Part shown: piece by piece, positions 1,065 through 62,221 of the stretch
How positions within the stretch are numbered: position 1 is the first letter of the stretch
How the letters are laid out: each line of letters opens with the position of its first letter
NCBI GenBank assembly: GCA_016432345.1
Contig: CP066685.1
Span: 304,236-368,235 of the forward strand
Length of the DNA stretch: 64,000 nt
Direction of reading: 5' to 3'
Source of the DNA: Candidatus Levyibacteriota bacterium
GTDB taxonomy: Bacteria > Patescibacteriota > Microgenomatia > Levybacterales > UBA12049
Notes under the pieces: generated by a model
The model's input: the letters and a program-made list of their open reading frames with translations, nothing else
Database searches by the model: none
Told to the model about the DNA's origin: nothing
Translations under genes and position numbers: made by a program

Positions 1065-2695
1065 TACGAAATTTTCAATTTTCAATTTTCAATTTTCAAT
1101 TTCGGTTCACGCACCTAATTATTCTTGTAATTTTATTACTTGCATCATTTCTACGACTTTATAGAATTGATGAGTATATGACGTTTTTGGGGGATGAAGG
1201 AAGAGATGCGTTTGTTGTTTACGATATTCTTCATGGTAAGCCAACATTGCTTGGTCCAACTGCATCTGTTGGAGGATTTTTCCTAGGCCCTATCTATTAC
1301 TATTTTATGGCTCCTTTTCTATGGTTATTTAACTACAATCCTGTTGGGCCCGCTGTAATGGTGGCTTTATTTGGCGTTGCTACAGTTTGGTTGGTTTACA
1401 AAGCAGGAAGTGAATTTTTTAGTGAAAAAGTAGGCATTATTGCTGCTCTTTTATACGCAATTTCTCCAATTGTTATTGCATACTCGCGTTCTTCATGGAA
1501 TCCAAACTTGATGCCCTTTTTCTCGCTTCTCTCTCTTTTTGTTGTCTATAACGCAGTTGCAAAGAAAAATAATCTGCTTTTTCTATTGTGCGGATTTCTT
1601 TTGGGTATTGCTTTGCAGCTTCATTACTTAACGATTTTTTTGAGTTTTATTATTGGCATATACATATTATGCGATGAGTTATGGTTGCAATATATTAAGA
1701 AAGCAAAACTTTTCGGCAGAGCAGGCATTGTTGTTGCGAAACAATACCTTTTTATTCTGGGTGGATTATTAGCTGGTTGGCTGCCGTTTTTTTTATTTGA
1801 AGTGAGGCATGGATTTCCCAATATTCAAAGCATTGCTAAGTTTATATTTTTTTCTGGCGATACTGGTACTAATATGAGTTTTTTCCCGGTGGTGATGGAT
1901 GTTTTTTTTCGTCTTTTTGGCAGATTGGCAACTGCATTTCCTCCTCCGGAGCAAATATCTGTGAGAGATTCTGTTGTAGCTTTTGATTTGGTTTTAGAGA
2001 GAATTACTATTCCTGCGACACCATTCTACCTTTTTACACTTTTTTTAGGAATCTTTTCGGCCTCCCTTTTTTTATGGAAATTTTACTTGATGCTTCGGGA
2101 AAAAAAAGAAAATATTCAAATACAACTTCTTGTCTTTTTATGGTTTTCTTTGGGTATTATGCTGTTTGGTTTTTACAAAAAACCAATTTATGATTACTAT
2201 TTTGGATTTCTTTTTCCATTACCCTTTTTACTTATTGGCAATGCTCTGTGGTTTTTATGGCAAAAGAGAAATGTTTTTAGTTTGGTAGCCGTTGGCATTT
2301 TTATTATATTGCTTACTGTGAATTTGCAGGGAATTCCGTTTCGGTCAGGAGCAAATCGTCAGTTAGCGCAGATGCAAACGATTGCCAATTTTGTTTTAAG
2401 TAAAACTGAAGGAAAACCATATAATTTTGCCATTATTAGTGGTGGTAATTCCGATCATGCATATCGGTACTTTTTTAGATTAGCAGGAAAAGACCCTGTC
2501 GAAATTAAAAAACCATACGAAGATTTCAATCGAAATTCGGTAACAAATCAACTTTTTGTGGTGTGCGAAGGACCATGTTCTCCTCCTGGAAATCCAGCCT
2601 GGGAAATTTCTGGTTTTGGCAGAGCAGAGATTATGGAAAAATGGGATGTATCAGTGGTAAGAGTATATAAGCTTGTTCATTATAAAAAGCAATAA
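1061..2695 (+). CDS. Polytopic membrane glycosyltransferase, GT-C fold (ArnT/PMT GT39-like)
   Basis: ORF 1010..2695. The likely start is ATG 1061, in an ATGA overlap with the upstream stop. There are more than 10 predicted TM helices and an N-terminal loop motif FLGDEGRDAFVVYDIL of the DE-containing GT-C type. It sits directly downstream of a polyprenol-P-sugar synthase. Confidence 0.6.
   Translation: MIRNFQFSIFNFQFRFTHLIILVILLLASFLRLYRIDEYMTFLGDEGRDAFVVYDILHGKPTLLGPTASVGGFFLGPIYYYFMAPFLWLFNYNPVGPAVMVALFGVATVWLVYKAGSEFFSEKVGIIAALLYAISPIVIAYSRSSWNPNLMPFFSLLSLFVVYNAVAKKNNLLFLLCGFLLGIALQLHYLTIFLSFIIGIYILCDELWLQYIKKAKLFGRAGIVVAKQYLFILGGLLAGWLPFFLFEVRHGFPNIQSIAKFIFFSGDTGTNMSFFPVVMDVFFRLFGRLATAFPPPEQISVRDSVVAFDLVLERITIPATPFYLFTLFLGIFSASLFLWKFYLMLREKKENIQIQLLVFLWFSLGIMLFGFYKKPIYDYYFGFLFPLPFLLIGNALWFLWQKRNVFSLVAVGIFIILLTVNLQGIPFRSGANRQLAQMQTIANFVLSKTEGKPYNFAIISGGNSDHAYRYFFRLAGKDPVEIKKPYEDFNRNSVTNQLFVVCEGPCSPPGNPAWEISGFGRAEIMEKWDVSVVRVYKLVHYKKQ
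1070..1103 (+). repeat. Heptanucleotide tandem array (AATTTTC) x4 perfect plus one unit lacking a T, in frame at codons 4-14 of the GT-C gene
   Basis: Read directly: aattttc aattttc aattttc aattttc aatttc. It encodes NFQFSIFNFQF. Confidence 0.95.
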
Positions 2696-3849
2696 TGCAG
2701 CGAATTATTATTTCTTTGATAGGTATTTTTTTAATTTGGAGAGTTCTTCTTTTTGTTCCACTTTTTATTGGACAGCAATTATTTATATACAGACAAGCAT
2801 TTGATTATACAAATATATGGAAATTTATAAAGCCATACGAGCCGGTAAATAATATACTGCTTTACCCATGGGCAAATTTTGATGGTGTATATTATCTTGC
2901 AATAGCGGGAGGCGAATATACTAAAGATAATGCTGGATTTTTCCCAGCTTTTCCCTTATTGATTAATGTTATTCATTTAGTTTTGGGAGGCGGTCAAACA
3001 TATGGATTAATGCAGTTTTTTTCTGCGTTGTTTATAGTTAATATTGTATTTATTTTAAGTTTATATGCATTTTATAAATTACTTAGGTTTGATTATGACC
3101 ATAGTACATCTACTAAAATAATTATTTTACTTCTTATTTTTCCAACATCTTTTTATTTTGTAAGTATTTATTCAGAAGGATTATTTTTTTTATTAACAGT
3201 TTTATCGTTTTATTTTGCAAGAAAGAGGCAATGGTTTTTTGCTGGGATATGCGGTATGTTTCTTACCGCAACAAGAATTGTTGGGGTGGCAATTTTTCCA
3301 GCTTTGGTTTACGAATTATATTTTCAAGAAAAAACATTTAAAACAAAAAAAATTATAAATTTATTTTTTATCCCGATTGGTATTGTAAGTTATGGTGTTT
3401 TTAATCTAGTAAGCTGGGGTAATTTTTTTCATTTTTTACAAGCGCATGGCACTTTAGGAAATGGGCGATCTACGGATTCGCTAGTACTTTTTCCACAAAC
3501 TATTTTTCGTTATATAAAAATTATATTTTCGGTTTCACCAGATATTTATGAGTGGTGGATTGCGCTTTTAGAGCTTGTTATTTTTATTGTTGCAATGTTG
3601 CTTATATATTTAGGTTTTAAAAAACTAATTCGTTTGTCTTATCTTGTTTTTGCCGCAATTGCATTTTTAATTCCTGTTTTTTCTGGAACATTTAGCGGAT
3701 TACCTAGATATGTAATTGTTTTATTTCCTTTATTTATTACCTTAGCATTAATAAATAAGAAGTGGATACATGTAACATATGTTGTTTGTGGAATAATTCT
3801 TTCTTTTTTACTTCTTATGCTCTTTTCCAGGGGATATTTTATTGCATAA
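2695..3849 (+). CDS. Integral membrane protein, PIG-V/GT-C-like mannosyltransferase family candidate
   Basis: ORF of 384 aa, about 9-10 TM helices. The motif WANFDGVYYLAIAGGEYTKDNAGFFPAFPLLI resembles the PIG-V-type mannosyltransferase signature. ATGA-type junction with the upstream GT-C gene. Confidence 0.5.
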   Translation: MQRIIISLIGIFLIWRVLLFVPLFIGQQLFIYRQAFDYTNIWKFIKPYEPVNNILLYPWANFDGVYYLAIAGGEYTKDNAGFFPAFPLLINVIHLVLGGGQTYGLMQFFSALFIVNIVFILSLYAFYKLLRFDYDHSTSTKIIILLLIFPTSFYFVSIYSEGLFFLLTVLSFYFARKRQWFFAGICGMFLTATRIVGVAIFPALVYELYFQEKTFKTKKIINLFFIPIGIVSYGVFNLVSWGNFFHFLQAHGTLGNGRSTDSLVLFPQTIFRYIKIIFSVSPDIYEWWIALLELVIFIVAMLLIYLGFKKLIRLSYLVFAAIAFLIPVFSGTFSGLPRYVIVLFPLFITLALINKKWIHVTYVVCGIILSFLLLMLFSRGYFIA

Positions 3850-4322: not shown

Positions 4323-5051
4323 ATGCTAATTATTAAAAATCTGCAAATTTCAGTACAAGATAAAGAAATAGTTAAGGGAATTGACTTAACAATTAAAAGC
4401 GGAGAAGTACACGCTATTATGGGGCCAAATGGCGCTGGTAAAACAACGTTAGCCATGGGGATGATGGGACAACCGCAGTTCAAAGTTCAAAGTTCAAAGT
4501 TTAAAGTTAATGGTGAGGATATGCTTAATAAGCTACCTGAAGAACGGGCAAGGGCTGGGCTTTTTGTATCGTTTCAGTCTCCGGTTGAAATAACAGGGGT
4601 ATCATTTTTATCGTTTCTTCGTACTGCTTATAAAGCACTTTATAGTCAGGAAAAAGTACCGCTGTCAGAATTTAAACAAAGAGTGAAAAATGCGTTAGCA
4701 ACAGTGTTTCTTCCTGAAGAATTTATGCATAGATCGCTTAACGAAGGGTTTTCGGGAGGAGAAAAAAAGCGAGCAGAAATTGCCCAGTTATTGGTGCTGC
4801 GGCCAAAATTTGCAATTCTTGACGAAATAGACTCCGGACTCGATGTTGATAGCCTAAAAATTGTTGCAAAGGCAATAAAAGAAGTAGTTACAAAGTATCG
4901 ATTGGGAATTTTTCTTATTACTCATTACCAGCGGATATTACATTACCTGCGGCCTAATTATGTCCATGTGTTAATGGATGGGAAAATTAAAAAATCAGGT
5001 GGTATTAGTTTAGTCCGCTTGATTGAAAAAGAAGGATATGCAGCAATTTAA
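4323..5051 (+). CDS. sufC: Fe-S cluster assembly ATPase SufC
   Basis: Walker [10 protein letters not shown], signature FSGGEKKR, Walker [18 protein letters not shown]. Collinear with E. coli SufC as I recall it. Confidence 0.95.
4478..4505 (+). repeat. Heptanucleotide array (GTTCAAA) x3 perfect plus GTTTAAA inside sufC
   Basis: Read directly: gttcaaa gttcaaa gttcaaa gtttaaa. It encodes [10 protein letters not shown]. Confidence 0.95.
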
Positions 5052-6429
5052 TACTTCCAATTATGAATATGGATTCCATGATCTTATAAAGCCGGTTTTT
5101 TCAACAAAAAAGGGTTTGTCAGAAAAAGTGGTAAGAGAAATTTCCTGGATGAAAAAAGAGCCAGCATGGATGTTAGAGCATAGGCTTAAGGCACTCGCTC
5201 TTTTTTACTCCAAAAAAATGCCTGGTTTTGGTGGGGATTTATCTACTCTTGATTTTGATAATATTTTTTATTATGTAAAGCCAATGGACAAGCAGGGACG
5301 TACTTGGGAAGAGGTGCCATCTGAAATTAAAAACACCTTCGATAAGATTGGTATTCCAGAAGCAGAGAAAAAATTTTTGGCAGGAGTTGGCGCGCAATAT
5401 GATTCAGAAATGGTATACCACAGTGTTTCTAAAATGCTCGAGAAAAAAGGCGTTATTTTTGTTGACACAGACACTGCAGTACAAAAATACCCAGAACTAG
5501 TTCGGCAATATTTTGGCACTATTATTCCAGCTGCCGATAACAAATTTGCTGCATTAAATACAGCTGTTTGGTCTGGTGGGTCATTTATCTATATACCTAA
5601 AGGTGTTTATGTAGAGCTTCCGCTTCAAGCCTACTTTCGTATTAATGCCAAAAATATGGGACAGTTTGAGCGGACTTTAATTTTGGCAGACGAGGGAAGT
5701 TACGTCCATTATGTCGAGGGATGCACTGCACCGATATTTACTACCGATTCGCTCCATTCTGCAGTGGTTGAAATTTTAGTAAAAAAAGGAGCACGAGTTA
5801 GGTACACAACAATTCAAAATTGGAGCAAGAATGTATACAACTTAGTTACCAAACGGATGTTTGTGGAAGAAGAAGGTTTTGGTGAATGGATAGATGGGAA
5901 TTTAGGTAGTCAACTAACCATGAAATATCCATCGGTGTACCTAAAGGGAAGAAAAGCCCGGGGAGAAATTTTATCTTTGGCATTCGCGGGAGCAGGGCAA
6001 CATCAAGATGCGGGGGGAAAGGCAATCCACTTAGCGCCAGAGACAACATCTGTTATTAGCTCAAAATCGGTCAGTAAAGATGGCGGGCGAACTTCGTATC
6101 GGGGGCTGTTGAAGGTTGCTAAAGGTGCAGTAAATAGTAAATCAACAGTCAGATGCGATGCTCTTATTTTGGATGATAAAAGTAGATCGGATACTTATCC
6201 GACAATGGAAATTAATGAAGAAAAAGTGACTATTGGACACGAAGCCTCGGTTTCAAAAATTGGTGAAGAGCAGTTATTTTACTTTCAATCTCGTGGTATT
6301 CCCCAAGCGCAAGCGGAAGTGATGATTGTTAATGGATTTGTCGAGCCAATTGTGCGGGAGTTACCAATGGAATATGCGGTGGAACTAAATAGATTGATTC
6401 AATTGGAGATGACAGGGGCGGTTGGATGA
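5038..6429 (+). CDS. sufB: Fe-S cluster assembly scaffold SufB
   Basis: ORF 5023..6429 (TTG at 5023; first ATG at 5038). Conserved SufB blocks are [27 protein letters not shown] and HEASVSKI. Confidence 0.93.
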
Positions 6430-6995
6430 AGAATATAAAAATAGTTGTAAACAAAAATGAAGAAAAGGTAGTGCCGTTTGTGTGGGTAAATGGGAAAGAA
6501 ACGGAAGTTTCGATAGAAGCAAGGCTTGCAGGAGATGGTGCGAGTTTAAAAATTGTAGGGATTTTTTTTGGTTCAGATTCACATTCAGTAATTTTTAATA
6601 CCAACGTGGTGCACGAGGCAAAAAATACTAAGAGTCTTACTACTATTCGTGGGGTTTTTACAGATCACGCTTCTATTAATAATGACGGCATGGTGCGGAT
6701 TAACAAAGGAGCAAAAAATGCCGATGGGTATTTTGCTTCCAAAATTTTGCTTTTTGATAATGCAAAAGGCAGGAGCGTACCATCACTTGAAATAGATGAA
6801 AATGAATTAAAGGCAGGGCATGCCTCAACTGTTGGGAGACCAGACGAGAATCAGTTATTTTATCTTCGAAGTCGTGGCTTGTCGGAAAAGCAGGCCTCAG
6901 AATTAATTGTTTCGGGATTTTTTGAGCCTATTATTACGTTATTGCCACAATCTGATCAGGAAGTTGTGAGAAAGGAAATCTATGCAGCAATATAA
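6426..6995 (+). CDS. sufD: Short SufD-like Fe-S assembly protein (C-terminal SufB/D beta-helix region only)
   Basis: 189 aa with blocks [52 protein letters not shown] overlap with sufB. Confidence 0.8.
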
Positions 6996-8196
6996 AAAAG
7001 ATTTTCCAATTTTCCAGAAAAACCAAAAACTTGTTTATTTAGATTCTGCTGCAACAAGTCAAAAGCCAAAAATTGTACTAGATGCAATAGTGGAATACTA
7101 CGAAACTTATAATGCGAATGTTCGACGCGGTTTATATGCAATTGCCGAAAAAGCAACAGTAAAGGTAGAAGAGGTACGAAAACAGACAGCAAGGTTTATA
7201 AATGCCAAATATCCAGAAGAGATAATTTTTGTTCGCAATGCCACAGAGGCAATAAATTTAGTAGCCTATAGTTTAGGAAACTATATCAAAAAAGGAGATA
7301 GTATTGTTACAACAATTATGGAGCATCACAGTAATTTTGTGCCGTGGCAACAACTTGCCAAAATTAATGGTGCTAAATTTGAAGTCATAGATATCAATGA
7401 TAATTTTCAATTTTCAATTTTCAATTTTCAATCAAATCTCAATTTTCAAAAATCAAAAATGCTAGCTATTACGCATGTATCGAATGTTTTAGGGACAATT
7501 AATCCTATTAAGGAAATTATTAGAAAGGTAAGATCGAAAAATCCTCATATTAAAATTCTTGTTGATGCGGCACAGTCGGTACCACACATGTCAGTTGATG
7601 TGCAGGATTTGGATTGTGATTTTCTTGTATTTTCGGGGCACAAAATGATGGCAAGTACTGGCATTGGGGTATTGTATGGTAAAAAAGAATTATTGGCGCA
7701 GATACAACCATTTTTATATGGAGGAGACATGATTAAAGAAGTTACAATTGAACGGACAATCTTTGCAGACGTGCCGTATAAATTCGAAGCAGGAACTCCA
7801 GATATTGCTGGAATTATTAGTTTAGGTAGTGCAATTGAGTATATAAATAGTACGGGTATAAATAGAGTTCAGAATTATGAATTTAGAATTATGAATTATG
7901 CAATGGAGAGATTAAAAAAAATTGATGGACTCACGTTGTATGGTCCTCAAAATGCTCAAAACCGAAGTGGAGTAATAAGTTTTAACATTGATGGGATTCA
8001 CGCGCATGATGTGGCGCAGGTTTTGGGAGATATGAATATTTGTATTCGCTCCGGCCATCACTGCACCATGCCGCTCCACAAAAGATTAGGTGTGCCTGCC
8101 ACCGCCCGGGCAAGTTTTTATATTTATAATGATGAAGAAGATGTTGATAAACTTATTGATGGGTTAAAAGAAGTAAAAAAGATTTTTAGTCATTAA
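6982..8196 (+). CDS. sufS: Cysteine desulfurase SufS (class V aminotransferase)
   Basis: Blocks LAITHVSNVLGT, FSGHKM (PLP lysine) and RSGHHCTMPL (catalytic Cys loop). Collinear with E. coli SufS as I recall it. Confidence 0.95.
   Translation: MQQYKKDFPIFQKNQKLVYLDSAATSQKPKIVLDAIVEYYETYNANVRRGLYAIAEKATVKVEEVRKQTARFINAKYPEEIIFVRNATEAINLVAYSLGNYIKKGDSIVTTIMEHHSNFVPWQQLAKINGAKFEVIDINDNFQFSIFNFQSNLNFQKSKMLAITHVSNVLGTINPIKEIIRKVRSKNPHIKILVDAAQSVPHMSVDVQDLDCDFLVFSGHKMMASTGIGVLYGKKELLAQIQPFLYGGDMIKEVTIERTIFADVPYKFEAGTPDIAGIISLGSAIEYINSTGINRVQNYEFRIMNYAMERLKKIDGLTLYGPQNAQNRSGVISFNIDGIHAHDVAQVLGDMNICIRSGHHCTMPLHKRLGVPATARASFYIYNDEEDVDKLIDGLKEVKKIFSH
7402..7459 (+). repeat. Heptanucleotide array (AATTTTC) x4 perfect, followed by degenerate 7-nt units (aatcaaa tctcaat tttcaaa aatcaaa aat) inside sufS
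   Basis: Read directly. It encodes NFQFSIFNFQSNLNFQKSK. The degenerate tail mixes the AATTTTC and TCTCAAA unit types. Confidence 0.9.
7871..7900 (+). repeat. 14-nt tandem duplication (agaattatgaattt / agaattatgaatta) inside sufS
   Basis: Read directly. It encodes QNYEFRIMNY. Confidence 0.85.
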
Positions 8197-8210
8197 ATTA
8201 TTTAAAGTTT

Positions 8211-8633: not shown

Positions 8634-8635
8634 TT

Positions 8636-9019: not shown

Positions 9020-9275
9020 TCGGGAATTGTGTATTGGCGCCGCAAGTTGTGTTGCGGTTGCCCCTAATACGTTTGAGTTAGATAGTGAAGGAAAAGCTGT
9101 AGTTAAAAAAAAAGATGGTTCTGTTGAACCAACATCTAATTTTGTCGCTTATACAGATATTAACGATACAGAGGAAAATATTCTTAATTCTGCCAAGTCG
9201 TGTCCGGTAAATGCGATTATTATTGTTGAAGTAGATGATGCAGGAAATGAAATCCGCCAAGTCTGGCCCTCCTAG
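8997..9275 (+). CDS. Small ferredoxin (single-cluster type)
   Basis: VDRELCIGAASCVAVAPNTFELD ... SCPVNAI pattern. It overlaps the sufU end and precedes the oxidoreductase genes. Confidence 0.8.
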   Translation: MALKVKVDRELCIGAASCVAVAPNTFELDSEGKAVVKKKDGSVEPTSNFVAYTDINDTEENILNSAKSCPVNAIIIVEVDDAGNEIRQVWPS

Positions 9276-9276
9276 T

Positions 9277-11013
9277 ATGGTAGATTTTCAGTGGTTAATT
9301 GGTGGCGAAGCAGGATATGGCATTATGACTGTTGGCGCCATAATGGGAAAAGTATTTACTCGTCTCGGCTTGTCGGTTTTTGACTATACAGAATATCCTT
9401 CTCTTATTCGTGGAGGTCATAACGCGTATTATGTTAGGGCATCAGATGAAGAGATTTTTTGCCAGAAGCAGCCAGTTGATATACTCGTTGCATTAAATCG
9501 GGAAACAATTGATAGACACAAACACGAATTAACTCCGCAAGCGCTTGTAGTTTATGACCCGAATGTTACTAAGGTTGAGTCTACAGAATTTACTACACAA
9601 ACTCTTATTCTAATTCCTTTTTTAGAATTAACAAAGCAAGTTGGGGCAGATAGACTGATGATTAATACTGTGGCGGTTGGCGCATCGATTGCTCTTTTAT
9701 ACAATGATTTCTCTGTTTTAGAGGGAATACTCAAAGATATTTTTGGAAGAAAAGGTGAAAAAGTTATTGCGCTTAACGTTGATACCTCAAGAGCTGGGTT
9801 TGATTATGTTGTCAAAAATTTTGCCGGTAAATCACAAATTGCAATACAAGAAAAACCGCAGGAGAATTTGTTTATCGGCGGAGCTGAAAGTTTGGCTCTT
9901 GGGGCAATTCGGGCGGGGGTAAAGTTTGCAGCCATTTACCCGATGACACCTATTAATGCCGTCCTTACGACGCTTTCTGCATACGCACTTAAATATAACA
10001 TTGTGGTAAAAGAGCCGGAAGATGAAATTGCCGGAGTTAATATGGCAATTGGCGCCTCTTTTGCTGGAGTGAGAAGTATTGCTGCCACATCTGGCGGCGG
10101 TTTTGCTTTAATGGTAGAAGGTTTAGGTCTTGCAGCCCAAACCGAAACACCGCTTGTAGTAATTGAAGGTATGCGACCAGGGCCAGCAACAGGTATGCCA
10201 ACTTGGACAGATCAGGGTGATGTGAGGTTTGTTTTGCATGCGGCGCATGGAGATTTTCCTCGAATTGTTGTTGCTCCGGGCGATTGTCTGGAGGCATTTA
10301 CATATGTAATGGAAGCATTTAATTTAGCAGAAAAGTATCAAATGCTTGTTATTGTGCTTACAGATAAATATCTTAATGAAGGACACACCACACTCAAAAT
10401 CTCAAATCTCAAATCTCAAATCTCAAATTATAAAATTGACAGGGGGAAGATGCTGACCGATGAAGAAGCATTAAAAGAGACAGATTATAAACGATATCTG
10501 TTTACAGAAGATGGAATTTCACCACGTTCAATACCTGGCCAGCAGAATGGAATTGCCTTAAATGGATCCGATGAACATGATGAGAAGGGTTTGTATAACG
10601 AAACTTCAAAAATGCGAACAACAATGATGGACAAACGTTTTAAAAAATTAGACGCGGTTGCAAAAATATTGCCGCCGCCTGTAATATACGGCGACAAAGA
10701 TGCAAGTCTTACTATTGTTGGATTTGGATCGACAAAATTGCCGGTACTCGAGGCAATAAAGTGGTTAAAAAAAGAAGGAATAAGTGTTAATTTTTTGCAG
10801 GTTGTATATCTAAATCCCTTTCCGGCAGATGTGGTACTACAAATATTAACTGGTGCAAAAAAAACATTGGTTATCGAAGGTAATAAAACAGGCCAATTCG
10901 AAAGTGTTGTTCGGGAAAAGACAGGATTTGTATTTAGTAATCATTTTCGAAAATATGACGGCCGACCATTTTACCCGGAGGAAATAGTGGAGAAGGTGCG
11001 GTCATTACTATGA
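9277..11013 (+). CDS. 2-oxoacid:ferredoxin oxidoreductase, fused gamma/alpha subunit
   Basis: ORF 9235..11013. The likely start is ATG 9277, just after the ferredoxin stop. Blocks GGEAGYGIMT, AAIYPMTPI, GASFAGVRSIAATSGGGFALM and EGMRPGPATGMPT. Confidence 0.88.
   Translation: MVDFQWLIGGEAGYGIMTVGAIMGKVFTRLGLSVFDYTEYPSLIRGGHNAYYVRASDEEIFCQKQPVDILVALNRETIDRHKHELTPQALVVYDPNVTKVESTEFTTQTLILIPFLELTKQVGADRLMINTVAVGASIALLYNDFSVLEGILKDIFGRKGEKVIALNVDTSRAGFDYVVKNFAGKSQIAIQEKPQENLFIGGAESLALGAIRAGVKFAAIYPMTPINAVLTTLSAYALKYNIVVKEPEDEIAGVNMAIGASFAGVRSIAATSGGGFALMVEGLGLAAQTETPLVVIEGMRPGPATGMPTWTDQGDVRFVLHAAHGDFPRIVVAPGDCLEAFTYVMEAFNLAEKYQMLVIVLTDKYLNEGHTTLKISNLKSQISNYKIDRGKMLTDEEALKETDYKRYLFTEDGISPRSIPGQQNGIALNGSDEHDEKGLYNETSKMRTTMMDKRFKKLDAVAKILPPPVIYGDKDASLTIVGFGSTKLPVLEAIKWLKKEGISVNFLQVVYLNPFPADVVLQILTGAKKTLVIEGNKTGQFESVVREKTGFVFSNHFRKYDGRPFYPEEIVEKVRSLL
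10392..10434 (+). repeat. Heptanucleotide array (TCTCAAA) x4 perfect (10400-10427) with degenerate flanking units, inside the oxidoreductase alpha gene
   Basis: Read directly: actcaaaa tctcaaa x4 ttataaa. It encodes KISNLKSQISNYK. Confidence 0.95.
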
Positions 11014-20121: not shown

Positions 20122-21024
20122 ATGAATATTGTTGGGAAAAAATATTGGTATTTTGGACTATCGCTTTTGGTGATTATTCCAGGGTTTATTTCGCTCTTTT
20201 TGTGGGGGTTACGGTTGTCGATTGATTTTACCGGAGGATCAAGAATTGAGTTTAGAATTCAGAATTCAAAATTCAAAATTGAGCGGTCAGAGTTTGAAAA
20301 AACAATAAAAAATCAAGGCATGGAGATAAGTTCGATACAGCAATCAAAAGATACATTTATTGTTAGGACTAAGCCGCTTGATCAAAAGACTCATCAAAAA
20401 GTAAAAGGAGCTATTGAATCGAAGTTTAGAGACGCTAAAGAAGTGAGTTTCCAGACAGTTGGGCCAACTATTGGGAAAGAAACAACCCTAAACGCAATAA
20501 AAGCAATTGTTGTGGCATCTATTCTTATTGTTTTATACATTGCGTGGTCATTTCGAAAAGTGCCAAAACCGGCCAGCAGTTGGCGGTTTGGCATATGCGC
20601 AATCGCAGCATTACTGCATGATGTGTTGGTGGTCGTTGGGATATTTTCGATTTTGGGTCATTTTTGGCATGTGGAAGTGGATAGTCTTTTTGTTACAGCC
20701 ATATTGACAATTATTGGATTTTCTGTTCACGATACGATCGTAGTGTTTGATCGGATTAGGGAAAACCTGCGAAGAATGCCTGGAGTAGCTTTTGCTAATA
20801 TTGTAAATGATTCGATATTGCAAACACTTAGCAGGTCTTTAAATACATCAATAACAGTTATTTTAGTTCTTTTTACAATGCTTTTGTTTGGAGGAGAAAC
20901 AATTAGGTGGTTTATTGTCGCGCTTCTTATTGGCATTGCCAGCGGGACATATTCTTCCATTTTCAATGCCGCCCCACTGTTGGTGGTTTGGCAGGAATTG
21001 ACAGAGAGAAGAAAACAGTCGTAA
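20122..21024 (+). CDS. secF: Protein translocase subunit SecF
   Basis: IDFTGGS, LLHDVLVVVGIFSI and GFSVHDTIVVFDRIRENL. Confidence 0.93.
   Translation: MNIVGKKYWYFGLSLLVIIPGFISLFLWGLRLSIDFTGGSRIEFRIQNSKFKIERSEFEKTIKNQGMEISSIQQSKDTFIVRTKPLDQKTHQKVKGAIESKFRDAKEVSFQTVGPTIGKETTLNAIKAIVVASILIVLYIAWSFRKVPKPASSWRFGICAIAALLHDVLVVVGIFSILGHFWHVEVDSLFVTAILTIIGFSVHDTIVVFDRIRENLRRMPGVAFANIVNDSILQTLSRSLNTSITVILVLFTMLLFGGETIRWFIVALLIGIASGTYSSIFNAAPLLVVWQELTERRKQS
20242..20281 (+). repeat. Heptanucleotide array (AGAATTC x2, AAAATTC, AAAATTG, plus an upstream AGAATTG separated by 5 nt) inside secF
   Basis: Read directly. It encodes IEFRIQNSKFKIE. Confidence 0.9.
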
Positions 21025-25335: not shown

Positions 25336-26973
25336 ATGAATATGAAGAAGTGGAAAGTTTTACATAAATTGAAAGATGAAAGTATCATAAACGTTCTTCT
25401 GGAAAATAGGGGAATTAAAACTAAAAAAGAGATTGGGGAGTTTTTACATCCGAAATTGGAAGATGTGACGGTAAAAAGCGTTGGCATTGATGGGGTTCAA
25501 TTGAAAAAAGCATTGCAAAGAATAGAAGAGGCAATTAAAAAGCAGGAAGAGATTGTGGTGTTTGGAGACTACGATGTAGATGGAATTTGCGGAGCTGCAA
25601 TTTTATGGGAAACACTTTTTTGCTTAGGAGCAAGAGTAATGCCATATATTCCTCATCGAATAGATGAAGGTTATGGTCTATCCCTTGCGGGAATCTCAAA
25701 TGTCAAATCTCAAATGTCAAATCTCAAATTGATAATAACGGTAGACAATGGAATAGTTGCAAATGAGGCGGTTTTGTTTGCTAATAAACAAGGTATAGAT
25801 GTTATTATTACCGATCATCATGTGGTGGGAGAAATACTGCCAAAAGCATATGCAATTGTTCATACAACTAAATTATGCGGAACAGGGGTGGCTTGGGTTT
25901 TAGCTCAAGAATACAAAATACAAAATACAAAATACAAAATACTAGATCATCTTGCTCTTGTGGCGCTGGCAACTGTGGCGGATTTGGTGCCATTAACTGG
26001 TGCGAATAGAACACTACTTATGCATGGTTTATCTGTGTTGCATAAAACAAAACGACTAGGTATTGTGGCAATATGCGAAGAGGCGGGAATTGACCAGAAA
26101 ACAATTGAGACGTATGAAATTGGTCATGTGATTGCGCCAAGGCTGAATGCAGCAGGGCGAATAGAGCATGCCATGGATGCCTTGCGACTTTTGTGCACCA
26201 AAGACACAAAACGGGCAAAACTGTTGGCGCAAAATTTAGGAGCAACAAATAGAGAAAGGCAGGATATAACGCTGGAAAGCGCGCAGCACGCAGTGTCAGG
26301 AATCAGGAATCAGGAATCAGGAATCAGGAAGAAATTACTTTTTATTGCGGAGGAGCAATATCAGCAAGGGGTGATTGGACTGGTTGCTGGGCGGTTGGTC
26401 GAGGAGTTTTATCGGCCGGCAATTGTGGTATCTATTGGGGAAACACATAGTAAAGCCTCGGCGCGGTCAATTCACGGATTTAATATTATTGAATTTATCC
26501 GTACTGCATCTCATTTGTTGATTGATGCAGGGGGGCATCCAATGGCAGCGGGGTTTACGGTGGAAACAGCAAAATTAACTCTTTTGCAAAAACATTTAGA
26601 GGAAAAAGCAGAAGAAATAATAGACGAGGCATTGTTGCAGCGATCGTTGCGAATTGACTGTGAAATTCCAATAGAAATTATTGACCAGCATTTATATAAA
26701 GAATTGCAAGCCTTAGCGCCGTTTGGCATGAAAAACCCAGAGCCGACATTTGTCAGTAGAAATGTTGTTATTGAAGATATGAGATTAGTAGGAAAAGACA
26801 GAAAACATGTAAAGTTTAAATTTTCGATTGACGCAATTGGGTTTGGGTTGGGAGAGAAAGCAGGGGAATTTAGTGTTGGGGATAAGGTGGATATTGTTTA
26901 TACGATTGATGAGAATGAGTGGAATGGAAGAAAAACGTTACAGTTGAAGGTGAGGGATATAAAGAGAAATTAA
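25336..26973 (+). CDS. recJ: Single-stranded-DNA-specific exonuclease RecJ
   Basis: ORF 25306..26973 (TTG), with the first ATG at 25336. DHH motifs VFGDYDVDGICG, ITVDNG, ITDHH, GTGVAW and GHPMAAGF. Confidence 0.92.
   Translation: MNMKKWKVLHKLKDESIINVLLENRGIKTKKEIGEFLHPKLEDVTVKSVGIDGVQLKKALQRIEEAIKKQEEIVVFGDYDVDGICGAAILWETLFCLGARVMPYIPHRIDEGYGLSLAGISNVKSQMSNLKLIITVDNGIVANEAVLFANKQGIDVIITDHHVVGEILPKAYAIVHTTKLCGTGVAWVLAQEYKIQNTKYKILDHLALVALATVADLVPLTGANRTLLMHGLSVLHKTKRLGIVAICEEAGIDQKTIETYEIGHVIAPRLNAAGRIEHAMDALRLLCTKDTKRAKLLAQNLGATNRERQDITLESAQHAVSGIRNQESGIRKKLLFIAEEQYQQGVIGLVAGRLVEEFYRPAIVVSIGETHSKASARSIHGFNIIEFIRTASHLLIDAGGHPMAAGFTVETAKLTLLQKHLEEKAEEIIDEALLQRSLRIDCEIPIEIIDQHLYKELQALAPFGMKNPEPTFVSRNVVIEDMRLVGKDRKHVKFKFSIDAIGFGLGEKAGEFSVGDKVDIVYTIDENEWNGRKTLQLKVRDIKRN
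25694..25728 (+). repeat. Alternating heptanucleotide array (TCTCAAA TGTCAAA) x2.5 inside recJ
   Basis: Read directly. It encodes ISNVKSQMSNLK. Confidence 0.95.
25910..25942 (+). repeat. Heptanucleotide array (ATACAAA) x4.6 inside recJ
   Basis: Read directly. It encodes EYKIQNTKYKIL. Confidence 0.95.
26296..26330 (+). repeat. Heptanucleotide array (TCAGGAA) x5 perfect inside recJ
   Basis: Read directly. It encodes SGIRNQESGIRK. Confidence 0.97.
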
Positions 26974-31664: not shown

Positions 31665-32903
31665 GTGAGACAAGTTCGAGTTCGCATTGCCCCGAGTCCA
31701 ACAGGCATTCCTCATATTGGCAATACCAGAACCGCGCTTTTTAATTATTTGTTTGCCAAGCATCATAAAGGTAAATTTATTTTACGTATTGAAGATACAG
31801 ACCGTGTTAGACTTGTGCCTGGCAGCGAAAATGCAATTAAAGAGATTTTTAGTTGGTTAGGGATACATTGGGATGAAGAGTATAAGCAATCAGATCGGAT
31901 TTTAATATACAAAGAATACGTACAAAAACTTAAAGAAAAAGAATTAGCATACGAAGATAATGGCGCAGTTAGATTCCGGATGCCAAAAGAAGGAGTAAAC
32001 GAATGGGAAGATGCCATAGGCAGCAAGAAAATTTTGTTTCAAAATAAAGACCAGGAAGATTTTGTTATTTTAAAGTCGGATGGTTTTCCCACATATAATT
32101 TTGCCAATGTGATTGACGATCATCTGATGGAAATAACTCATGTAATTAGAGGTGATGAATTTATTTCCTCAACTCCTAAGCATATCCAGCTTTATAAAGC
32201 TTTCGGTTGGGATCAGCCGGTTTTTGCCCATTTGCCAGTGATATTAGGTCCAGATCATCAAAAACTTTCAAAGCGGCATGGGGCAAAGTCGGCGCTTGAT
32301 TACCGCGACGAAGGGTATTTAAAAGAAGCGCTGCTTAATTATATGGTTTTGTTGGGTTGGAATCCTGGAAGCGATCAAGAAATTATGTCTTTAGATGAAA
32401 TGATCACTCTTTTTGATTTGCCGGGTGTTAACACGGCCAGTCCGATTTTTGATGTAAAAAAGCTATTGTGGATGAATGGAATATACATACGAAAATCTCA
32501 AATATCAAATCTCAAATCTCAAATAATATCTCAAAACTCAAAACTTAAAAATGTAGATGATGCGTTGTTGGATAAACTTATTCCTCTTGCGCAGACGAGA
32601 ATGAATACGCTGAATGATTTTTATACACTTACCCGACATTTTTTTGAAGAACCAAAAGTAGTTCTTGATGAAAAGGAAAAAGAAACTGCTCAAAAACTTT
32701 ATAATGCTTTTTTAACAATGAAACTTTGGGATAATGAAACAATTTTGTCATCATTAAAAAATGTTATTCATAAAGAAGGTATTCGTATGCCTATTTTATA
32801 TAAGATACTTACAGGCGCCCCAAGCGGTTTGCCATTGCCAGAATCCTTAACGATTTTAAGCAGAGAAAAGACGATAAAGAGGCTTAAAAAATTACTTACA
32901 TGA
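31665..32903 (+). CDS. gltX: Glutamate--tRNA ligase
   Basis: GTG start. VRIAPSPTGIPHIGNTRTALF (HIGH) and KLSKRHG (KMSKS). Confidence 0.92.
   Translation: MRQVRVRIAPSPTGIPHIGNTRTALFNYLFAKHHKGKFILRIEDTDRVRLVPGSENAIKEIFSWLGIHWDEEYKQSDRILIYKEYVQKLKEKELAYEDNGAVRFRMPKEGVNEWEDAIGSKKILFQNKDQEDFVILKSDGFPTYNFANVIDDHLMEITHVIRGDEFISSTPKHIQLYKAFGWDQPVFAHLPVILGPDHQKLSKRHGAKSALDYRDEGYLKEALLNYMVLLGWNPGSDQEIMSLDEMITLFDLPGVNTASPIFDVKKLLWMNGIYIRKSQISNLKSQIISQNSKLKNVDDALLDKLIPLAQTRMNTLNDFYTLTRHFFEEPKVVLDEKEKETAQKLYNAFLTMKLWDNETILSSLKNVIHKEGIRMPILYKILTGAPSGLPLPESLTILSREKTIKRLKKLLT
32496..32549 (+). repeat. Heptanucleotide array (TCTCAAA family): tctcaaa tatcaaa tctcaaa tctcaaa, a 5-nt break, then tctcaaa actcaaa acttaaa, inside gltX
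   Basis: Read directly. It encodes SQISNLKSQIISQNSKLK. Confidence 0.92.
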
Positions 32904-46778: not shown

Positions 46779-47996
46779 ATGCGAATTTTCAATTTTCAAT
46801 TTTCAATTTTCAATTTTCTTGCGATATGTTATACAACAGTAATTCTTAGTTTGTTCTTTTTTTCCTTCACCCAGGTAGATTTAGGCCTAACACTTAGTCA
46901 ATGGTCTGTTTGGCAGGAATTTCAAAAATTTTTCCAAACTATTGGTTATTTTCAGCGGCCATTTTCAACCGTCTGGTATACTTTTTTGCTCATTTTTCTA
47001 TTTGGTTTTTACTTTGCCTTTTTATATTTAGCCCAAAAAAAATTACTTACAGAAAAGCAAATTACAATACTTATTTTGTTAACAAGCGCAATCTTATTTT
47101 TTTCCTACAACGCCTTTTCTTACGATTTATTTAATTACATTTTCGATGTAAAAATTGTTACGTTTTATCATCAAAATCCCTATACGCATCGGGCGCTTGA
47201 TTATATGGGTAATCCCATGCTTGGTTTTATGCATTGGACACAGCGGACTTATCCGTATGGACCCTTTTGGCTTTTGGTAACAATTCCTTTTGGTCTTCTT
47301 GATGGTTTTAGGCTACTGCTTCCCACGATGATGCTTTTTAAGGGACTGGCGTTTATTAGTTATTTAGGAACAGTACTTTTTTTAAAAAAGATTTTAGACA
47401 AAGTTTCTCCAAAAGACGCATTATTCGGCATAGTATTTTTTGCTTTTAATCCGCTTGTGTTAATCGAAAGTTTAGTATCAGCTCACAATGATATTTTTAT
47501 GATGTTCCTGTCTGTTTGGGCTTTTAAGCTCTTATTGGACAAAAAATATTTTCGTTCATTTTTATTACTTGTTTTATCAATAGGCGTAAAGTTTGCCACA
47601 GTATTTCTTATACCCGTTTTTTTACTAATTGGCTTTTTACTTTTTAAACAAAAAAAGATTAATTGGAATTTAATCTTTTTAATAATTACGCTGTTTATGA
47701 TTTTTCCCGTTGTCGTTGCTAGTGTTCGGACCAATTTTCAACCATGGTATCTTTTGTATATTTTGCCATTTGTGTCATTTCTTGCCAAAAAGTATTTCAT
47801 ACTCATTCCATCGGTTGTAATCTCTCTTTTTGCTCTGTTTGAATACGCGCCATTTTTATATACTGGTAATTGGAATTCACCAATTCCAGTACTTCTCGAA
47901 ACAATCAGATTTGTTGGTATTGGGATTTCGGCTTTTTTGGTAGTCATATGGTTTATACGAAATCGCTTTTTGGTAAGGCATAACGTGTTACAATAA
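46779..47996 (+). CDS. Polytopic membrane protein, probable GT-C-type glycosyltransferase (DUF2029/GT87-like)
   Basis: ORF 46674..47996, with the likely ATG at 46779, 4 nt after the upstream stop. About 11 TM helices. Loop NPYTHRALDYMGNPMLGFMHWTQRTYPYGPFW. Confidence 0.45.
   Translation: MRIFNFQFSIFNFLAICYTTVILSLFFFSFTQVDLGLTLSQWSVWQEFQKFFQTIGYFQRPFSTVWYTFLLIFLFGFYFAFLYLAQKKLLTEKQITILILLTSAILFFSYNAFSYDLFNYIFDVKIVTFYHQNPYTHRALDYMGNPMLGFMHWTQRTYPYGPFWLLVTIPFGLLDGFRLLLPTMMLFKGLAFISYLGTVLFLKKILDKVSPKDALFGIVFFAFNPLVLIESLVSAHNDIFMMFLSVWAFKLLLDKKYFRSFLLLVLSIGVKFATVFLIPVFLLIGFLLFKQKKINWNLIFLIITLFMIFPVVVASVRTNFQPWYLLYILPFVSFLAKKYFILIPSVVISLFALFEYAPFLYTGNWNSPIPVLLETIRFVGIGISAFLVVIWFIRNRFLVRHNVLQ
46784..46818 (+). 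repeat. Heptanucleotide array (AATTTTC) x5 perfect at codons 3-14 of the membrane protein gene
   Basis: Read directly. It encodes IFNFQFSIFNF. Confidence 0.97.
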
Positions 47997-56691: not shown

Positions 56692-58233
56692 ATGAAACAT
56701 TGGGGATTTTTTATCATCTTGGCAATTTCTTTTTGGGCGGTAAGATCTCTTTTTGCTCCTGGGTTTTTCCCAATACATGATGATACGCAGGTGGCCCGAG
56801 TTTTTGAAATGGGAAAAGTATTACAGACTGGAGTATTTCCTGCCCGTTGGGTGCCGGATTTAGGGTATGGTTATGGATACCCAATCTTTAACTATTATGC
56901 GCCGCTTGCGTATTATGTTGGTGGAATTATAACGCTTATTGGTGTAGATGCCCTTATTGCCACAAAAATTATGATTGGTCTTGGAGTCCTTCTTGCAGGT
57001 ATTTTTATGTACTTTCTTGTTCGAGAGCTTTGGGGAGAATTGGGAGGAATTATCGCAGCCCTTTTTTATATTTATGCACCATACCATGCTCTACAAATTT
57101 ATGTAAGAGGAGCGGTAGGAGAGCTTTGGTCATATGCTTTTATTCCTCTTGTGTTTTACGGATTGTATAAAATATATACAGAAAAAAAATGGAAATGGGT
57201 AATTGTTGGATCAATAGGATATACCGGAGTAATTCTGTCTCATAATTTAACAGCAATCATGCTTACACCTTTTTTACTCATTGTTATATTGTTTTATTGC
57301 TTCATTTTTTATAAAAATAGGCAACTATACGCTATACGCTATTCACTATACGCTGTTTTACTTGGTTTGCTTCTTAGTGCTTTTTATTGGATTCCTGCTG
57401 TTTTTGAAATGCAGTATACCAATGTGCAGTCTCAAATCGGCGGCGGCGCAGATTTTCGTGATCATTTTGTTTGTTTAAACCAGCTTTGGGATAGCCCTTG
57501 GGGTTTTGGCGGCTCAACAAAGGGATGTATAGATGGACTTTCTTTTAAAATAGGAAAACTGCATTTAATTACAGTGATAATGTCTCTCTTTGTAGTTTTA
57601 AGTTTTATATGGAGGCGGAGATATATACGACTTGGTATCATTCTTTTTTCTCTTGTTGGGTTTTTTGCATCAGTATTTTTGATGTTGGAAATCTCCAAAT
57701 CAATTTGGGAGACAGTTCCGTTGATCGCATTTTTTCAGTACCCATGGAGGTTTTTATTGTTTACTTCTTTTTTTTCATCATTTCTTGTTGGTGCAATAGT
57801 TTGGTTTTTAGAACAAGAATTTGGAAAAGTAAAATACTTTAATACTATTCTGTATTTAAGTACTGCAATTTTAGTGTTTCTTCTTCTATTTTTTAATATC
57901 AAACTTTTTCAGCCGCAGACAATACTGTTAAAAACAGCGCAAGATTATACAAACGACAGAGCTCTCAAATGGATAGCTTCAAAAACATCAGATGAATATT
58001 TACCAACAAATGTCAAACTTCCAATATCTGACTATGATATTCCAAAAAAAAATACAAATGAGAAAAGTGTTGCAGTAACGGTAGAGAATCAAAAAGACCT
58101 ATTTAAACGTTATAAAGATCAGCTTCCTCCTTTGCGATTTGAGCAAACAAATTTAGAAAAGATCGCCAACATATTATCCGTTATTGGTATAGGGGTACTT
58201 ATTATTGGTATAATCTATGCTAGGAAGAAATGA
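56692..58233 (+). CDS. Polytopic GT-C-like membrane protein, paralog 3 of 3
   Basis: GFFPIHDDTQVARVFEMGKVLQTGVFPARWVPDLGYGYGYPIFNY and YPWRFL. Confidence 0.55.
   Translation: MKHWGFFIILAISFWAVRSLFAPGFFPIHDDTQVARVFEMGKVLQTGVFPARWVPDLGYGYGYPIFNYYAPLAYYVGGIITLIGVDALIATKIMIGLGVLLAGIFMYFLVRELWGELGGIIAALFYIYAPYHALQIYVRGAVGELWSYAFIPLVFYGLYKIYTEKKWKWVIVGSIGYTGVILSHNLTAIMLTPFLLIVILFYCFIFYKNRQLYAIRYSLYAVLLGLLLSAFYWIPAVFEMQYTNVQSQIGGGADFRDHFVCLNQLWDSPWGFGGSTKGCIDGLSFKIGKLHLITVIMSLFVVLSFIWRRRYIRLGIILFSLVGFFASVFLMLEISKSIWETVPLIAFFQYPWRFLLFTSFFSSFLVGAIVWFLEQEFGKVKYFNTILYLSTAILVFLLLFFNIKLFQPQTILLKTAQDYTNDRALKWIASKTSDEYLPTNVKLPISDYDIPKKNTNEKSVAVTVENQKDLFKRYKDQLPPLRFEQTNLEKIANILSVIGIGVLIIGIIYARKK
57325..57354 (+). 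repeat. Heptanucleotide array (CTATACG) x2, CTATTCA, CTATACG, CTG
   Basis: Read directly. It encodes QLYAIRYSLYA. Confidence 0.92.
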
Positions 58234-61312: not shown

Positions 61313-62221
61313 ATGAATAAAGTAAGTATAGTTATTGTAAATTTTAACGGAAAAAAAGATACATTTCAATGTATAGAAAGTGTTGAAAAATTACAACCCG
61401 CCAGCTGGCGGGCAAATTACAAATTACAAATTATTGTTGTTGATAACGGTTCTGAAGAGGAGTTCAAAAAAGATGAAATTACAGTTTTAAGAAACGAAAA
61501 AAATCTCGGATTTTCTGGGGGAAATAATGTTGGAATCAGATATGCTTTGGGAAATGGAGCAGATTATGTAATGCTTTTGAACAACGACACGATAGTTAAT
61601 CAGCATTTAGTTGAAGAATTATTAAAGGTTGCCAACTTGGATAAAAGAATAGGAGTTGTAGTTCCTAAAATTTATTTTGCCAAAGGCCACGAATTTCATA
61701 GAGAGCGATATAAAGAAGAAGAGCGGGGAAAAGTAATTTGGTATGCGGGAGGGGTAATAGATTGGAATAATGTCGTAGGAATTCATAGAGGAGTTGATAA
61801 AGTAGATCATGGTCAATATGACAAAGTGGAGAAAACAGATTTTGCAACAGGATGTTGCATGTTAATTAAAAAGGAAGTTTTCGAACATGTTGGTTTATTC
61901 GATGAGAAGTATTTTTTATATTATGAAGATGCAGATTTTAGTATGAGGGCGATTAGGGGGGAATACAAAATCGTATATATGCCAAAGGCATTTCTTTGGC
62001 ATATTAATGCTGGTTCGACAGGGGGGTCAGGGTCGGCTCTTCAGGATTATTATACGACTAGAAACAGAATGCTTTTCGGAATGAGATATGCGCCATTGCG
62101 ATCAAAAGTAGCATTAATTAGAGAAAGTGTAAGTTTATTTTTTTCTGGGAGAAATTGGCAGCGTGTTGGAGTACGTGATTTTTATATCTCCCGTTTTGGG
62201 CGAGGAAGTTTTTTGATATGA
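61313..62221 (+). CDS. GT2 glycosyltransferase (rhamnosyltransferase/WbbL-like)
   Basis: VSIVIVNFNG, IIVVDNGS, NLGFSGGNN and YYEDADFSMR. Confidence 0.85.
   Translation: MNKVSIVIVNFNGKKDTFQCIESVEKLQPASWRANYKLQIIVVDNGSEEEFKKDEITVLRNEKNLGFSGGNNVGIRYALGNGADYVMLLNNDTIVNQHLVEELLKVANLDKRIGVVVPKIYFAKGHEFHRERYKEEERGKVIWYAGGVIDWNNVVGIHRGVDKVDHGQYDKVEKTDFATGCCMLIKKEVFEHVGLFDEKYFLYYEDADFSMRAIRGEYKIVYMPKAFLWHINAGSTGGSGSALQDYYTTRNRMLFGMRYAPLRSKVALIRESVSLFFSGRNWQRVGVRDFYISRFGRGSFLI
61397..61412. repeat. Perfect 16-nt GC-rich palindrome CCCGCCAGCTGGCGGG inside the GT2 coding sequence
   Basis: Read directly. It encodes PASWRA and is flanked by AAATTAC units on both sides. Confidence 0.95.
61414..61434 (+). 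repeat. Heptanucleotide array (AAATTAC) x2 plus AAATTAT; a further AAATTAC unit lies at 61388-61394, upstream of the palindrome
   Basis: Read directly. It encodes NYKLQII. Confidence 0.9.

Follow-up and report, generated by a model that had tools for sequence, protein, structure and literature searches.

Heptanucleotide tandem arrays within protein-coding genes of Levybacteria

Tandem repeats with a unit length that is not divisible by three nucleotides (nt) are usually kept out of genes or used there as switches. Why, then, does a stretch of a Levybacteria genome carry arrays of 7-nt units in one gene after another, essential genes included? The stretch comprises 64,000 nt of contig CP066685.1 (positions 304,236 to 368,235 of the forward strand; the whole of it is referred to as the window). 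The host, whose genome is 94% coding, belongs to the Microgenomates group of the Candidate Phyla Radiation (CPR, or Patescibacteria); RecJ, SufS and SufC of the window show 100% identity to proteins from a 'Candidatus Levyibacteriota' assembly. Comparison of orthologous genes led us to regard the arrays as long-lived microsatellite loci at fixed protein positions and not as foreign insertions, and they are tolerated in essential genes by a whole clade.

Period-7 arrays in the window and in related genomes

An earlier note, made from the letters of the window alone, had listed 14 short arrays of period 7 or 14. Tandem Repeats Finder (TRF) recovered all of them at the positions where the note had placed them. 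The open reading frames (ORFs) and their translations put each array inside a long plus-strand ORF, where it is read through in frame into a peptide with 7-residue periodicity; the peptides named as examples, NFQFSIF and SQISNLK among them, match the translated arrays. At least 11 genes including housekeeping genes had been claimed as hosts, and Pfam assignments identified 11 plus-strand hosts. These are SufC, SufS (two arrays), the alpha subunit of 2-oxoacid:ferredoxin oxidoreductase (POR alpha), SecF, RecJ (three arrays), GluRS, and five glycosyltransferase-like membrane proteins. The arrays, and one palindrome within the last of them, are the following.

1070..1102, plus strand: (AATTTTC)x4.7 in a PMT_2 glycosyltransferase gene (1061-2695), residues 4-14, peptide NFQFSIFNFQF (TRF, translation, Pfam)
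4477..4508, plus strand: (AGTTCAA)x4.6 in sufC (4323-5051) (TRF, translation, Pfam)
7402..7460, plus strand: compound array of (AATTTTC)x4.4, TCAAATC, TCAATTT and TCAAAAA x2 in sufS (6982-8196), peptide NFQFSIFNFQSNLNFQKSK
7871..7900, plus strand: 14-nt-period array (AGAATTATGAATTT)x2 in sufS, peptide QNYEFRIMNYA
10397..10428, plus strand: (AAATCTC)x4.6 in the POR alpha gene (9235-11013), peptide KISNLKSQISN
20242..20280 (TRF 20242/20256-20280), plus strand: AGAATTG..AGAATTC AGAATTC AAAATTC AAAATT in secF (20122-21024), peptide RIEFRIQNSKFKI
25692..25729, plus strand: (AATCTCAAATGTCA)x2.7 in recJ (25342-26973), peptide GISNVKSQMSNLK
25910..25942, plus strand: (AATACAA)x4.7 in recJ, peptide EYKIQNTKYKIL
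26296..26330, plus strand: (TCAGGAA)x5.0 in recJ, peptide SGIRNQESGIRK
32493..32550, plus strand: degenerate array of the (AAATCTC) type, about 8 units, in gltX (31665-32903), peptide KSQISNLKSQIISQNSKLKN
46784..46818, plus strand: (AATTTTC)x5.0 in the gene of a GT87-like membrane protein (46778-47996), immediately 3' of the start codon
55751..55788, plus strand: (ACGTGCTACAAGCT)x2.6, G+C-balanced, in the gene of a PTPS_related membrane protein (55158-56684)
57325..57354, plus strand: (CTATACG)x4.3, 82% matches, in the gene of a paralogous membrane protein (56692-58233)
61388..61433, plus strand: (AAATTAC) array in a GT2 gene (61313-62221), split into AAATTACAA (61388-61396) and CAAATTACAAATTACAAATTA (61413-61433)
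61397..61412, no strand assigned: perfect 16-nt G+C-rich palindrome CCCGCCAGCTGGCGGG, peptide PASWR, at the split in the AAATTAC array

The arrays at 1070 and 46784 lie directly 3' of the likely true start codons of their genes (1061, where stop and start overlap in ATGA, and the ATG at 46778, respectively) and are therefore likely to be N-terminal coding sequence of two membrane glycosyltransferases, not intergenic DNA.

Period 7 was indeed special, as the note had supposed. Perfect arrays of at least three copies occurred eight times at period 7 in the window and not once at periods 4–6 and 8–24. In 200 dinucleotide shuffles of the window the mean number of perfect period-7 arrays was 0.0 and the maximum 1, and in 300 within-gene codon shuffles the number was 0; the density thus exceeded both of the shuffled controls that the note had proposed, and the observation stood. 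The run-length spectrum of the window showed identity runs at lag 7 at background level up to about 9 nt and then a cluster at 25–29 nt. This excess was shared by Microgenomates loci and lacking in outgroups. The arrays at 25692 and 55751 and the POR alpha array of the related locus L093 (loci other than the window carry handles beginning with L) are perfect at period 14 or 21, suggesting that copying takes place in multiples of the 7-nt register as well.

When three or more units are read in three phases, the cyclic sequence of a coding array must be free of TAA, TAG and TGA. Nine of the 10 unit classes in the window contain a stop codon when inverted, so that those arrays are possible only in the orientation observed. 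The note had also seen no array in minus-strand genes. This is true of the window; however, with 22% of the coding DNA on the minus strand the absence is not significant, and it is contradicted by relatives in which the divergently transcribed CCA-adding-enzyme gene beside recJ has arrays, which lie at a single conserved site and follow the sense strand of that gene. The CCA-adding-enzyme gene of the window is a short, array-free form. Given the arrays in relatives, we regard the absence from the minus strand of the window as a sampling effect.

A scan of genome collections with RecJ yielded about 44 loci from Microgenomates and about 36 from outgroups such as Bacilli and Chloroflexota, and five syntenic Levybacteria loci were obtained by exact protein look-up. 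Arrays of period 7, 14 or 21 were counted in all of these. One array occurred per 4.9 kb of the window, per 5.2 kb of the five closely related Levybacteria loci, per 15 kb of the other Microgenomates (766 kb) and per 78 kb of the outgroups (701 kb). The arrays are thus a genome-scale property, as had been claimed, and one that extends to the clade. ORFs of at least 100 amino acids contained 13 of 13 arrays in the window, 15 of 17 in the close relatives and 43 of 50 in the other Microgenomates, in total 71 of 80 (89%). Since 92–94% of random 33-mers fall within ORFs, the arrays lie near the expectation for random positions, and it is at about this rate that the clade tolerates them in genes. 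Array length had a sharp mode at 31–35 nt, inside ORFs and outside. Some arrays outside ORFs in relatives have stop codons in every frame (L026, 2865 and 5918).

Many loci of the scan (L001, L003, L007, L012, L013 and others) are titled 'uncultured Gammaproteobacteria bacterium'. Their RecJ proteins are 50–63% identical to the Levybacteria query and they share the Levybacteria recJ gene neighbourhood; the titles look mislabelled. A scan of viral contigs for (AATTTTC)4 returned 11 unrelated contigs with a G+C content of 21–59%, in which the arrays lay mostly outside long ORFs, and gave no link to CPR phages. Four of the IMG/VR contigs found by this motif (L086, L089, L083 and L091) have many period-7 arrays of several units, again mostly outside long ORFs. 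L086 (8.4 kb, G+C 0.47), with about 11 arrays, is an example of dense heptamers elsewhere in the usual non-coding setting. A search of the window against Rfam gave two tRNAs only, and the arrays are therefore not explained by an RNA family.

Fixed sites, slot length and allele steps

In 27 RecJ orthologues (60–81% identical to RecJ of the window, from many independent assemblies), 7-periodic peptides occurred at the same five places, with SKFKVQS, NFQFSIF, SQISNLK, IQNSEFR and IKNQKSK among the peptides at the shared sites. The DNA units found at these five hot spots in 27–120 orthologues are unrelated to each other (ACCAAGA, CAACCTA, AACCAGC, AGATTTA, AAATCTC). The same pattern was seen in other hosts. 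The SufC slot of about 11–12 codons is filled by four units in five lineages, namely AGTTCAA in the window and L094, AATTTTC in L095, CAAGTAT in L096 and GATTTAA in L093; L096 has one additional codon, and L093 also has a 30-nt G+C-rich insertion. The POR alpha slot displays four array types in four lineages (the window and three relatives) without any gap, one of the arrays consisting of two copies of a 21-nt unit. At the secF site, AGAATTC/AAAATTC in the window corresponds to (AATACCA)x3.7 at the same position in L081. Both units continue conserved flanking codons, the AGAATTC of the window extending AGA ATT G, which suggests that units derive from local sequence. At the position of the gltX array, L081 retains ancestral-like PDEL residues. 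Close relatives gain as well as lose arrays at a given site, and codon alignment showed that the array at 1070 is missing in the orthologues of L093, L094 and L096.

The array segment of SufC aligned without gaps to the proteins of Thermus (EYTVERGEILL) and Escherichia coli (DYEVTGGTVEF), corresponding to a length change of zero. Across orthologues this slot has 29 residues, which is the E. coli and Thermus length, or 31 or 33, with many different units. Compared to SufS in the PDB, the segment of the first SufS array is longer by one residue and that of the second is ungapped and of equal length. The GluRS array region is two residues shorter than in the Thermotoga maritima enzyme. From these alignments, most arrays appear to occupy slots of roughly ancestral length and not to be added sequence. 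AlphaFold2 placed the SufC array in a beta-hairpin (E53-56/E59-62) with a local predicted local distance difference test score (pLDDT) of about 90, and the segment is thus predicted to form the native hairpin still. The RecJ arrays fall on a predicted helix (residues 127-136) plus loop for the array at 25692, and on the ends of predicted helices plus loops for those at 25910 (helix 192-206) and 26296 (helix 301-334). Near-ancestral slot length, taken together with this predicted placement in helices and a hairpin, suggests that the arrays overwrite structured elements. Simple insertion by slippage, which had been our first model, was rejected as a full account, since the ancestral length is preserved in the slots of SufC, SufS and POR alpha.

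Length differences between relatives amount to whole units, but the units come in threes (21 nt, seven residues). At the first SufS site, L096 lacks exactly 21 nt (7 codons) of the array. In about 90 SufS orthologues this site has 20 residues (..NFQFSIFNFQSN..), 13 residues (..NFQSN..) or, in a form without an array, 18 residues. On a neighbour-joining tree the 20- and 13-residue forms are intermingled, the 50 taxa requiring no fewer than 13 changes of state, and near-identical pairs include GENFQFSIFNFQSNPNVQKA and GENFQSNPNVQKA. The N-terminal segment of RecJ has 14, 21 or 28 residues (n = 7, 44 and 6, respectively; 120 orthologues). At RecJ site 2, the site of the array at 25692, 99 of 118 orthologues have 15 residues; site 3, corresponding to the array at 25910, has 13, 20 or 28 residues, and site 5 has 6, 13 or 20.

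Copies may also change together. At the second SufS site the window reads AGAATTATGAATTT AGAATTATGAATTA, as opposed to GGAATCATGAATTA GGAATTATGAATTA in L093 and L096; a G-to-A difference is present in both 14-nt copies while the length is unchanged. As judged from such alignments, repeat copies apparently change in concert without change of length. No frameshifted allele was found: recJ was uninterrupted in 41 of 41 genes taken from unannotated Microgenomates contigs, and all syntenic orthologues were in frame. The doubt expressed in the note that on/off phase variation could explain the arrays was therefore justified, as recJ is intact throughout and alleles differ by three units, not by one.

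Misalignment in a register of seven and its rivals

As the best explanation, and one that we consider somewhat probable, we propose that the template is misaligned in a register of 7 nt and that selection retains those outcomes which keep the frame, contain no stops and have a length that the protein tolerates. During DNA synthesis in replication or repair, the growing strand would re-anneal 7 nt out of register on local sequence and, once a repeat is present, by 14 or 21 nt as well. This would give rise to short tandem arrays that are repeatedly re-homogenised. Because the genome is so densely coding, most events would hit genes. Arrays would persist there if the frame is kept, by a net change of either zero or 21 nt; if they are free of stops in all three phases read, which would fix their orientation to the sense strand of the gene; and if the segment accepts nearly any sequence of the right length, as N-termini, the SufC beta-hairpin and the helix ends and loops of RecJ may do. 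A periodic segment would in turn be the best substrate for further misalignment, which would explain why loci persist while their units turn over and why copies change together. Arrays would then be frame-locked by-products, and the outcome would be hypervariable peptides with 7-residue periodicity at fixed positions, without on/off switching. Length-neutral change could come about by two routes compatible with the data, either a conversion-like copying and realignment or a 21-nt expansion followed by in-frame trimming of the flanks. The misalignment itself, any reason for a register of 7 and the near-neutrality of the arrays are our inference, whereas the excess of period 7, the distribution in the clade, the shared sites, the 21-nt steps, the concerted change, the orientation, the near-ancestral slot length and the retention of predicted structure come from the analysis directly.

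Several findings weigh against this explanation. In an essential gene, slippage by one unit at a time would have to pass through lethal intermediates in order to homogenise copies without a change of length, so that a conversion-like step or expansion with subsequent trimming has to be assumed. The register of 7 is left unaccounted for by the present data. Coding DNA is not depleted of arrays, as it should be if the majority of events did harm, and the length mode of 31–35 nt is not predicted by simple slippage. The recurrence of the same unit in unrelated genes, pointed out in the note, was confirmed for AATTTTC and AAATCTC, each occurring three times among 13–14 arrays; it is not random (P about 1e-5 to 4e-5 under composition or coding-sequence 7-mer nulls), and AATTTTC recurs in other genes and lineages. 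Furthermore, the first SufS site contains the same DNA array in L093, L094 and L095 and is identical or nearly so in four lineages. Codon identity at identical residues was 11/11, 11/11 and 12/12 there compared to 51–55% elsewhere in the gene, in a test weakened by strong codon bias and shared ancestry. Such identity between lineages is not accounted for by homogenisation within a lineage.

Stop avoidance at low G+C content was considered as a cause of the TCAA core and of the recurring units and was rejected: of 2340 unit classes, 1608 contain no stop, and those among them with the highest probability (ATTTTTT and ATATTTT) are unused.

Preferred units, the sharp length mode and length-neutral replacement would be signatures of a specialised enzyme and not of generic slippage. 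A dedicated activity of DNA synthesis or repair in Levybacteria and other Microgenomates could proceed in 7-nt steps and rewrite patches of about 25–35 nt with the adjoining heptamer. It would represent a new, non-retroelement form of hypermutation of fixed segments in otherwise conserved proteins, for which a repair polymerase or a primase-polymerase acting at breaks or gaps would be candidates; we regard such an activity as rather unlikely. Alternatively, the arrays could be selected DNA or RNA elements, either protein sites on 7-nt-periodic single strands or antisense three-frame stop barriers, that are genic because nearly all of the genome is coding. This is unlikely too. It would agree with the recurrence of AATTTTC and AAATCTC, the retention of array DNA between lineages beyond the level of synonymous sites, the characteristic length within ORFs and without, and the lack of depletion in coding DNA, and for nine of 10 unit classes all antisense frames contain stops, compared to about 31% expected. 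However, there is no motif common to units that range from AATTTTC to ACGTGCT and TCAGGAA, or to ACCAAGA and CAACCTA in relatives. Unrelated units occupy the same site across lineages, arrays are gained and lost at a site among close relatives, and codon bias and shared ancestry weaken the codon-identity test here as well.

Selection could instead act on the proteins, favouring diversified or flexible surface segments, for example against phage or host factors, or heptad-like amphipathic elements. Sites that are fixed and hypervariable throughout the clade, segments that are predicted to fold as native hairpin or helix, and the retention of arrays in a streamlined genome are consistent with this possibility. 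We nevertheless consider it rather improbable: a peptide property does not need repeats that are perfect at the DNA level, the arrays of L026 outside ORFs have stops in all frames, SufC, SufS, GluRS and RecJ are cytoplasmic and without obvious exposure to antagonists, and the peptides are diverse, from the hydrophobic NFQFSIF to the polar SGIRNQE. Insertion of small mobile or externally templated DNA, similar to miniature elements, is highly unlikely. The identical unit in unrelated genes and the G+C-rich palindromic mini-elements within arrays (61397-61412 in the window, and in orthologues) might suggest it, but the slots are of roughly ancestral length, units continue local flanking codons, steps are multiples of the array unit (21 nt), units number in the dozens, and there are neither terminal inverted repeats nor target duplications nor constant ends. 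Classical contingency loci would be switched on and off by slippage of single units, as in neuO of E. coli K1. This phage-borne gene encodes the K1 capsule O-acetyltransferase and has 3–53 units of (AAGACTC)n in its 5' coding region; only copy numbers divisible by three give full-length protein, and the gene is phase-off in 65.6% of genomes (PMC13001214). neuO is a precedent for a coding heptanucleotide switch, and the arrays described here are like it in that a coding 7-nt unit, not a multiple of three, is read in three phases into a 7-residue repeat and would shift the frame upon a one-unit change. The five glycosyltransferase-like membrane hosts would fit the host type of contingency loci. 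In contrast to neuO, one accessory gene with single-unit variation, the arrays reside in many single-copy housekeeping genes, and SufC, SufS, POR alpha, SecF, RecJ and GluRS are not the accessory, surface or restriction-modification hosts typical of such loci. The arrays are short (3–8 units), alleles differ by three units, and no off alleles were seen, every orthologue being in frame (41 of 41 recJ genes and the five syntenic loci). We therefore rate switching as very improbable. The chance that the arrays are an assembly or sequencing artefact is practically negligible. Short repeats are prone to mis-assembly, but these are shorter than a read, all keep the frame, and recur at the same sites in many independent assemblies (NCBI, ENA, JGI, Logan).

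Known repeats and neighbouring features

An excess of heptanucleotides is in itself known. It goes back to the survey of Mrazek, Guo and Shah (2007), which is summarised in two papers (PMC4679880, PMC4692102). Among long simple sequence repeats, heptanucleotides are the most frequent class in many bacteria, and slippage of the polymerase has been suggested as their origin. Examples are GGGAATC in Xanthomonas and TAACTGA in Beggiatoaceae and cyanobacteria. The arrays described here share with these repeats the head-to-tail arrangement of 7-nt units, the preference for period 7 over its neighbours and a copy number of typically about 2–6, most Xanthomonas arrays having 4 units. The published repeats are described as mainly intergenic and units of a multiple of three as tolerated in genes, whereas 89% of the arrays counted here are in ORFs. 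The latter differ further in being located at orthologous protein positions, in their 21-nt allele steps and in their many units. The short tandemly repeated repetitive (STRR) heptamers of cyanobacteria are likewise clade-wide 7-nt tandem repeats, with copy numbers that vary between strains. Their consensus units are CCCCAGT, TTGGTCA and CAACAGT. Neither these units nor a cyanobacterial host was matched by the present arrays, the units of which are AATTTTC, AAATCTC and others in a Levybacteria host. Degenerate heptanucleotide repeats with inserted non-motif elements also occur in the P6b stem of the Nostoc tRNA-Leu intron (PMC3488679), and Calothrix repeats are cited in PMC4692102. The palindrome at 61397-61412 and the G+C-rich inserts of orthologues resemble the extra elements within the Nostoc repeats (PMC3488679). 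Unlike the arrays studied here, the STRR and Nostoc repeats belong to another phylum, have other units and are found in non-coding or RNA-structural contexts, with no reading-frame constraint.

Repeats within genes have been described for Borg elements, in which perfect tandem repeats create amino-acid repeats and the units in ORFs are all divisible by three (PMC9879509). Like those, the arrays are genome-specific, locally derived, perfect and inside ORFs, create new peptide segments and display a base bias on the coding strand. Borg repeats have longer units and are mostly in disordered regions of extracellular proteins, whereas the arrays here are frame-incompatible and replace what appear to be structured elements of roughly ancestral length. 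The heptamer AAACCCT/AGGGTTT of Eimeria is abundant genome-wide, and 93% of the frame-incompatible repeats are outside coding sequence (PMC4287421). Eimeria thus follows the usual non-coding rule, and the Levybacteria arrays do not.

The earlier note had known of no description of such arrays, a statement that has to be narrowed. Both the heptanucleotide excess and the coding repeat of neuO have been published (PMC4679880, PMC4692102, PMC13001214). Full-text searches, which covered few subscription journals, gave no account of heptanucleotide arrays that are frame-locked within genes and shared at orthologous sites by CPR bacteria. The 7-nt bias and slippage are therefore already known, and it is for the coding, frame-locked and clade-wide form that we found no description. 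If confirmed, orthologous sites in hundreds of genomes would provide a natural record of why 7 nt is favoured in bacteria, a question open since the 2007 survey. They would also indicate that a mutational bias can drive local turnover of protein sequence while function is unchanged. For protein alignments, phylogenies and selection tests in the CPR this would be a warning that some segments are shaped by repeat dynamics, with motifs such as NFQFSIF, SQISNLK and SKFKIQN recurring through mutation and not through homology.

The palindrome CCCGCCAGCTGGCGGG that splits the AAATTAC array of the GT2 gene has its sole copy in the window at this position, and one more was found in L018. No other notable inverted repeats were detected in the window. 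In RecJ and SufS orthologues and in SufC of L093 (7248-8006), short G+C-rich in-frame inserts are present, often within heptamer arrays. They encode peptides such as PFDFAQGK, SASWRT, SIQQAQDK, PPAGG/SAKGG and PQRPGFAGQA, and longer hairpin-like inserts of orthologues read CHPERSEGSQ...MPKQVRHDK and VILNSFQDL...MLKQVQHD. The window has no copy of any of these, a search for the G+C-rich hairpin peptides of orthologues (CHPE.., KQVQHD, FDFAQG) having been negative. The only sizeable repeat of a triplet-compatible period in the window is a TCTTCT/TCTTCTTCT array of period 6 or 9 at 37662-37705 (about 7 copies, 73–77% matches). It is located inside a minus-strand ORF (37538-38035) and would encode a Glu/Lys-rich run.

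Some observations concern neighbouring genes. An ORF of 384 amino acids (2695-3849) between the PMT_2 gene and an Rrf2 regulator had no Pfam match, and neither had its counterpart of 385 amino acids in L096. The latter locus represents the closest relative (GCA_964544105.1), in which SufB and POR beta each contain an intein with a LAGLIDADG domain (6877-9375 and 15146-17137); SufB (5023-6429) and POR beta (11010-11900) of the window have no intein. Within the suf operon of the window (5023-6995), a SufB-like protein of 468 amino acids is followed by a short protein of 189 amino acids in which the SUFBD core domain is represented by its C-terminal part alone, and the same arrangement is present in L093 and L096.

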